From Raja brachyura (taxonomy: Eukaryota), in NCBI GenBank assembly GCA_963514005.1, contig OY740790.1:37944001-38008000 (forward strand): a stretch of 64,000 nt of DNA, read 5' to 3'. Shown here in pieces: positions 4,240-4,371 of the stretch (positions within the stretch are counted from its first letter, which is position 1; each line of letters opens with the position of its first letter). A program made the position numbers and the translations under genes. The notes beneath the pieces were generated by a model. The model was not told the origin of the DNA, made no database searches, and worked only from the letters and a program-made list of their open reading frames with translations.

Positions 4240-4371
4240 ATGTTTAAGAAGGAACTGCAGATGCTGGAAAAATCGAAAGTCTGAAGAAGGGTCTTGACCC
4301 GAAACGTCACCTATTCCTTTGCTCAATAGATGCTGCCTCACCCACAGAGTTTCTCCAGTATTTTTATCTAC
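4240..4371 (+). mobile_element. Short Penelope pLTR-derived insertion (inverted tail plus hammerhead-bearing unit) with 12-bp TSD
   Basis: Flanked by ctgattaactga at 4228-4239 and 4372-4383. The body matches the 3' end of the Penelope element at 53581-53678. Confidence 0.85.
4278..4311 (+). ncRNA. Minimal type I hammerhead ribozyme motif, intact core
   Basis: CTGAAGA (4281-4287), extra A, stem II GGGTC/GACCC (4289-4300), GAAA (4301-4304), palindromic ACGT helix III, predicted GUC cleavage after 4308, short stem I GT/AC. Confidence 0.7.

Follow-up and report, generated by a model that had tools for sequence, protein, structure and literature searches.

A short two-armed insertion of an abundant Penelope-like retrotransposon in Raja brachyura, and the end points of its relatives

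The insertion at 4240..4371 of the window (the whole 64,000-nucleotide stretch of Raja brachyura DNA analysed here) carries an inverted piece of its own tail in front of a forward unit that lacks the tail, and it raises the question of which of its breakpoints are set by the element and which by chance. According to the original prediction all of them are fixed, with a flip of exactly the tail that rebuilds one complete unit in the manner of twin priming, a programmed second priming site, and a defined 5' boundary that the hammerhead cut does not explain. We identify 4240-4371 as a short two-armed insertion (132 bases) of a very abundant Penelope-like retrotransposon (Table 1). Positions within the element are numbered from the A of AGTCTGAAGA (+1, window 4278), and 0 denotes the base preceding that A.

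As a description of the sequence, a flipped tail followed by a tailless forward part holds. The inverted part (4240-4277) is the 38-nt reverse complement of the tail of its own subfamily, the forward part (4278-4371) is the tailless unit with the last letters ...TCTAC, a single base (C, 4372) is common to the duplication end and the tailless end, and the two parts sum to one unit, within 1 nt. The 5' ends of this and other short copies had been placed at AGT/CTGAAGA (slashes mark boundaries here and below); the shared start stands, but its exact place moves to just before the A (/AGTCTGAAGA). Read from the sequence, the hammerhead is predicted to cut after 4308; Rfam returned no hammerhead match for the motif, its 6 matches being hairpins below gathering scores.

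Table 1. Coordinates of the insertion under study and of related copies in the window
Feature	Position	Strand	Description
Target-site duplication, left copy, 12 bp	4228..4239	+	
Inverted arm, tail end (about +134) to about +97	4240..4277	-	Short extreme of the arm-length continuum
Forward tailless arm, +1 to about +95	4278..4371	+	From the A of Inr-like YC/AGT to the tailless RT start
Minimal type I hammerhead motif	4281..4310	+	CTGAAGA core, stem II, GAAA-C-GTC, 2-bp stem I; by eye
Target-site duplication, right copy	4372..4383	+	First C common to the duplication and the element end
Long tailless copy	41612..41972	-	Extends >270 nt upstream of +1
Insertion of like layout, independent	42923..43038	+	30-nt inverted partial tail (42923-42952), tailless arm from +1 (42953), 13-bp duplication
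Head-to-head insertion, overlapping arms	17298..17536	.	Tailless minus arm from +1 (17395), short filler, tailed plus arm; 16-bp duplication
Head-to-head insertion, tailless and tailed arm	25815..26010	.	Arms meet at the stem II palindrome (about +12)
Solo tailed unit, +1 to +136	54946..55081	-	Natural reference copy
Long tailless copy, youngest subfamily	53311..53678	+	Extends >250 nt upstream of +1

Short arms at 4278, 17395, 31738, 42953 and 55081 all start at +1, and other short arms in the window start at about +12 (25886/25897) and at +25/+45 (near 5120/5149). The insertion at 42923-43038 had been read as a second instance of the layout at 4240. The order of its parts and its different target duplication agree with that reading, but its flipped arm is without about 7-8 nt of the tail start, so that no full unit is rebuilt, and its forward arm starts one base later than claimed, at 42953. 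The evidence supports two independent events and not copies of one master, as the target duplications and inner junctions of the two insertions differ and junctions are diverse genome-wide. At 17298, 25815, 41615 and 53678 the tailless ends map to about +92..+98, which is nearly the common position proposed for them, although those at 41615 and 53678 belong to long copies and not to stubs. The window also holds a tail-only fragment (42516-42558). In the genome sample described below, several tail-only fragments run on into ORF-start sequence and are therefore the 5' ends of longer copies rather than flipped tails. Elsewhere in the window, 22199-23826 holds a probable DNA transposon of 1.6 kb that carries long terminal inverted repeats, and an unrelated 126-bp hairpin at 59077-59202 is probably a MITE.

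Judged by its sequence features, the repeat is assigned to the endonuclease-positive (EN+) Penelope-like elements (PLEs). A tandem layout forming pLTRs is present, as expected of an EN+ PLE, and so are an optional 30-40-nt tail and an inverted 5'-truncated copy inside the target duplication. A 911-aa frame at locus L076, which is that of the youngest subfamily and not 4240's own, ends about 230 nt upstream of the unit and contains, by eye, RT (YIDD), a Cys-rich linker holding Cys-x4-Cys-x2-Cys, and GIY-YIG-type motifs. A Pfam search of this frame gave RVT_1 with an E value of 8e-5, below the curated cut-off, and no GIY-YIG match. The linker places the element probably in the Neptune clade (PMC8557442); this Cys linker feature of Neptune is common to Nematis (PMC8557442), and vertebrates are reported to hold Neptune and Poseidon. 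A tandem array on C18 comprises four matches spaced 3,965 bp (unit at L277 850 and 4815), and in the full 3,965-bp unit the first ATG lies at +167. Splice-donor-like sequence (L277 1010-1020) overlaps this ATG, and the ORF in the array copy is split over two overlapping frames. In a predicted fold of the same copy (L277 850-985, unit +1..+135), calculated without a shuffle or covariation control, +51..+59 pair with tail positions +108..+116, and +4..+13 pair with the end of the tail, so that both RT starts flank a helix. Short tandem arrays with units of about 65 nt, from +25..+90 of the repeat, occur at L073 7693-8100 and at L151 6696-6800 and 8740-8811.

At least four families have the unit in common and diverge upstream of about -2; the core letters of the hammerhead, whose cleavage is only predicted, are kept in the four upstream families. 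For the youngest subfamily alone, a single 35-mer is matched exactly at 44,757 sites in the genome. We sampled 156 evenly spaced 10-kb stretches (160 were requested and 4 were absent), corresponding to 1.56 Mb of the 2.7-Gb genome, and these contain 531 interior insertions, of which 361 are solo, 123 head-to-head, 28 complex, 13 tandem and 6 tail-to-tail. A loose search found duplications around 56 of 264 solo copies, compared with 30 of 790 control pairings; 6 of the 56 are artefacts of tail-only copies.

We present the 5' ends of these arms with upstream family models supplied, since a histogram from a single BLAST reference overstated the peak at +1 because subfamilies diverge just upstream. 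The wall persisted after this correction and also within one subfamily. Among 416 arms, 165 end at -5..+9, compared with 10 at -20..-6 and 4 at -35..-21, whereas downstream the counts are 54 (+10..+24), 47 (+25..+39) and 31 (+40..+54); a further 50 arms extend beyond -35. Starts at -1..+4 account for 45 of the 80 arms of the youngest subfamily, with 0 and +4 inflated by hairpin arms. The wall is a cluster and not a single base, as starts at +2..+5 are common and some lie at 0 or -1. A few arms end at about -18 to -24 (L090 about 7360-7400; L099 about 3740-3800; L183 about 3107), which is possibly a minor second start or a microhomology site.

Whole-genome counts for the youngest subfamily agree with a wall at +1 and show none at the ribozyme cut. 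A base other than C precedes +1 in 6,543 matches, about 5,500 of them with a purine (estimated from 84 purines, by eye, in the first 100 matches listed, which come from the start of the genome), while a purine precedes 0 in 1,986 and a base other than C precedes +5 in 2,278; about 17,600 copies read through +1. The count at +4 (3,289) is inflated by hairpin centres and was not used. A purine precedes the cut product (+32) in 430 matches and the control position +38 in 734, and because these two patterns use another anchor their ratios to +1 are approximate. A slight bump at +30..+39 in the sample had made the cut site a candidate peak, which the comparison of +32 with +38 did not confirm. The units of this element thus do not end at the hammerhead cut as those of a retrozyme do, and the part of the original prediction that posited a defined 5' boundary unexplained by that cut is borne out, with a wall at +1 and no excess at +32. 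Among 19 long copies holding the ORF start (16 further long copies were left out of this tally), the end falls at -7..+38 in 7 and at +126..+352 in 8, and 4 continue upstream. Starts at +1..+4 are also seen in 30 of 42 solo copies, a partly selected set, that have a duplication next to them and no partner, and therefore a partner arm is not required. At one head-to-head insertion (L205; G000:C1 about 1207540-1207730), both arms run from +1 and are separated by about 150 nt of unrelated sequence.

What, then, is +1? We consider it probable that it is a transcription start and that the stubs are run-off cDNAs. This is based on the steep upstream edge and downstream slope, which are as expected of run-off from a template end, on YCA+1GT, which is kept in all four upstream families although they diverge from -2 upward, and on the internal Inr/DPE promoter in the pLTR of D. 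virilis Penelope. The consensus of the Pol II initiator is YYA+1NWYY, and a motif of this type lies at the boundary in all four upstream families; it should be noted that the pattern is loose, with YYANWYY occurring 7 times and YCAKTY 3 times in 400 nt, and that DPE-like spacing misses the first base. A+1 and C0 are unpaired in stem I, where only +2 and +3 pair. By eye, in the first 100 matches listed, the base before +1 is G in 40, A in 44 and T in 16, and the base before +5 is G in 29, A in 35 and T in 36, T being raised by C-to-T decay. This tally does not separate an extra, cap-derived G at +1 from the +5 control (40 of 84 and 29 of 64 purines, respectively). G precedes 0 in about 57 of 100 matches listed (by eye), and single-base fillers are G in 5 of 7 cases at +1/+2 and in 1 of 2 further downstream, in a tiny and partly selected sample. 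The original prediction had left the boundary as either an RNA 5' end or an RT stop; the evidence favours the former without proving it.

A wall could also be left on a longer RNA by an RT pause or an end-joining hotspot at +1, due to snap-back or annealing of TCAG-T-CTGA or to a bound protein, an explanation that we regard as unlikely. It would account for the perfect hairpin junctions on the palindrome, which are common (about 10 of the 66 mixed pairs described below, with an overlap of 4-11 nt at -3..+4), and for the many copies that read through +1. However, the solo copies that have no partner start at +1..+4 as well, the youngest subfamily has CC and not TC upstream yet shows the wall, and a stall at a fold would be expected at about +13 to +35 (the 3' edge of the ribozyme or stem), where there is no excess.

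Processing of the RNA at +1, whether by a ribozyme cut in another register (C0/A+1), at a CAG/T 3' splice site or at a branch point, is in our judgement quite unlikely. Hammerhead cleavage triplets follow the NUH rule, and three upstream families do read AUC/AGU, with a flank that by eye could pair with the GAAAC-GUCA strand, yet the youngest subfamily, with ACC/AGU, breaks this rule and has the clearest wall. A splice site is suggested by the upstream tract, which is pyrimidine-rich and ends in CAG, and by D. virilis, in which the intron stops at the 5' end of helix I (PMC4209133). A splice junction would, however, start at +3 and add exon letters, whereas copies keep AG and duplication-flanked starts at +3 are without filler in 5 of 5 cases. 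In contigs from public runs, which may hold DNA, 8 of the 15 joints listed, out of 80, land at -2..+4, several of them from upstream element positions, and none of the 15 has GT..AG ends.

We find it very unlikely that the stubs stem from short non-autonomous masters, SINE- or retrozyme-like, or from one pre-rearranged master. A stub from +1 would keep the internal promoter and the priming region and could be re-mobilised, and retrozymes are described as deriving from pLTRs (bioRxiv 10.64898/2026.07.22.740005). Nevertheless, the stubs share subfamily-diagnostic bodies with long ORF-bearing copies, long copies too end near +1, the junctions are diverse, and the ends do not lie at the ribozyme cut.

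The outer 3' ends were blurred by nhmmer, and a panel of 75 natural copies was therefore used to place them. They are bimodal: of the 389 arms that aligned well, 175 have their end at +88..+101 and 108 have it at +131..+137, and a 20-base stretch between these ranges holds 29. These two peaks match the two internal RT starts published for Anolis Poseidon (PMC11167929). The second fixed priming site of the original prediction thus exists, and it corresponds to the tailless RT start already shown in vitro for that element (PMC11167929). The two kinds of end are combined in pairs: among the 75 of 123 head-to-head pairs that could be classified (the other 48 were dropped), 66 join a tailed to a tailless arm, 8 are tailless/tailless and 1 is tailed/tailed, so that mixed pairs make up 66/75 against an expected 0.50 (p 2.3e-12). 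Partner arms have private letters in common more often (41/240) than near neighbours do (20/224, p 0.013), which fits one source RNA or locus. At young tailless ends, the following base is T in 27 of 45, and T is the element's next base too. The C run at the tailless start exceeds the templated 3 in 11 of 45 ends of the youngest subfamily (e.g., L198, L143 and L213) and reaches 19, which suggests slippage at initiation.

The original prediction proposed a histogram of the breakpoints as its own check; the outer ends and the 5' wall are true peaks, but the inner flip point has none. In the 66 mixed pairs, the inner end of the tailed arm spans -24 to +103, and this arm is tail-only in 6 pairs and overlaps its partner in the other 60. 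A pattern search of the whole genome for short flipped arms that adjoin a start at +1/+2 yielded 686 matches. In the first 100 of these listed, scored by eye, about 18 inner ends lie 7-12 nt and 20 lie 2-6 nt inside the tail, about 24 fall within -1..+3 of the tail boundary, 18 lie 4-8 nt past it and 15 further, and about 5 are unclear. The flip point is not fixed, and there is no dominant master junction. Given this scatter and the prevalence of overlap, the apparent rebuilding of one unit by twin priming at 4240 is a coincidence: its tailed arm stopped near the tail boundary after 38 nt by chance, and the exact tail flip carries no extra mechanism.

In L1 twin priming, two target nicks prime cDNA and an inversion arises inside one target duplication, its segments being complementary parts of one RNA and the internal primer site being variable. 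The insertions studied here resemble it in the two proposed nicks and in the inversion within one target duplication, and differ in that both primer sites appear fixed and that overlap between the arms is the usual case. A form of twin priming in which a programmed flip takes exactly the tail and yields complementary arms is highly improbable. In its favour are the near-perfect sum of the parts at 4240, the junctions at the tail boundary and the private letters shared by partner arms. Against it, neighbouring bins of 5-6 nt hold 18-20 of the first 100 matches listed each, the repeated junction at the boundary has GT microhomology, the arms overlap, the flipped arm at 42923 is incomplete, and insertions with a short arm are few genome-wide in comparison with the exact 35-mer matches of a single subfamily. 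Self-priming on antisense templates, which has been put forward for rotifer PLEs (PMC3846280), is similarly improbable: palindromic junctions are present here, but many others are asymmetric, contain filler and have inner ends that are independent of each other, and both outer ends lie at sense-RNA RT starts, one of each, which favours two primings.

We infer a start site, a protein dimer and an order of events from the observed end distributions, pairing rule, arm overlap and lack of a peak at the cut site. The whole is probably best explained by paired internal RT starts, run-off at +1 and free joining of the cDNA ends. The element protein would nick both target strands about 9-15 bp apart, giving rise to the target duplication, and each nick would serve as the primer for reverse transcription from an internal RNA site, which is the tail end (+131..+135) for one nick and +94..+98 for the other; a dimer of the protein would give one tailed and one tailless start. 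If the 5' pLTR copy is used, priming would take place only about 96-135 nt from the RNA 5' end and the cDNA would run off at or just short of +1, while priming in the 3' pLTR would result in long, randomly truncated copies. Two such template regions are needed by the model because so many copies pass +1. The two cDNA 3' ends would then be joined wherever each had stopped, either with filler or through microhomology, for which the TCAG-T-CTGA palindrome at +1 would often serve, and the hammerhead would be copied uncut. We speculate further, and more doubtfully, that a dimeric RNP loads two RT starts, one per nick, and routinely makes 'strong-stop' cDNA off the 5' pLTR, and that jumps of this cDNA to another element RNA build the tandem and pLTR structures; the joints that land at -2..+4 are only a hint of such jumps.

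How PLEs integrate, what their hammerhead does and how the pseudo-LTRs originate are still to be explained, with a single protein studied in vitro so far. Two countable rules emerge from the genome record, namely one tailed plus one tailless arm, and a wall at an initiator-like A and not at the ribozyme cut, and these are useful, testable clues to Penelope integration. The kind of element is known, and its architecture is largely known as well. The pairing count and the 5' wall at the ribozyme edge, at an initiator-like A, were not found in the literature searched, the scope of which did not extend to subscription papers, Repbase/Dfam entries or supplements.

For Poseidon of Anolis carolinensis (PAc), Frangieh et al. 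(2024, PMC11167929) found that two adjacent internal RT starts delimit the tail and that both strands are cut and extended by the protein; they predict a dimer, and HHR cleavage proved unnecessary. The element described here is like PAc in that its tail of 30-40 nt likewise lies between two internal RT starts, about 90-135 nt downstream of the hammerhead, and the template would be uncut. PAc, however, belongs to the Penelope/Poseidon clade and has its ATG at stem II, whereas we find a Cys-rich linker and a first ATG well downstream, and the portions of the PAc paper's main text available to us describe neither a 5' wall at the ribozyme edge nor a count of tailed and tailless pairing.

Inverted 5'-truncated copies at the 5' end, target duplications, palindromes at the inverted junction and a start site inside the pLTR are all features that have been described for EN+ PLEs (Craig et al. 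2021, PMC8557442; Arkhipova et al. 2013, PMC3846280), and a tail 'at one end only' is described qualitatively in the same sources. Unlike in these general accounts, the arms here are often only 30-135 nt long, and the pairing has been counted. The hammerhead resembles the minimal motifs of metazoan PLEs (Cervera and de la Pena 2014, PMC4209133), for which opposite-strand motif pairs close together were noted, in its type I core, palindromic or absent helix III and short helix I; set against those motifs, the insertions here do not begin at the predicted hammerhead cut, the activity itself being only predicted. In D. virilis Penelope, the pLTR contains a TATA-less internal promoter of the Inr/DPE type (Schostak et al. 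2008, PMC2377424). Between its start and the hammerhead, about 120 nt downstream, are a short exon and a 75-bp intron (PMC2377424, PMC4209133), whereas the start that we propose is at the 5' edge of the ribozyme. The layout of the start site is therefore not universal among these elements.
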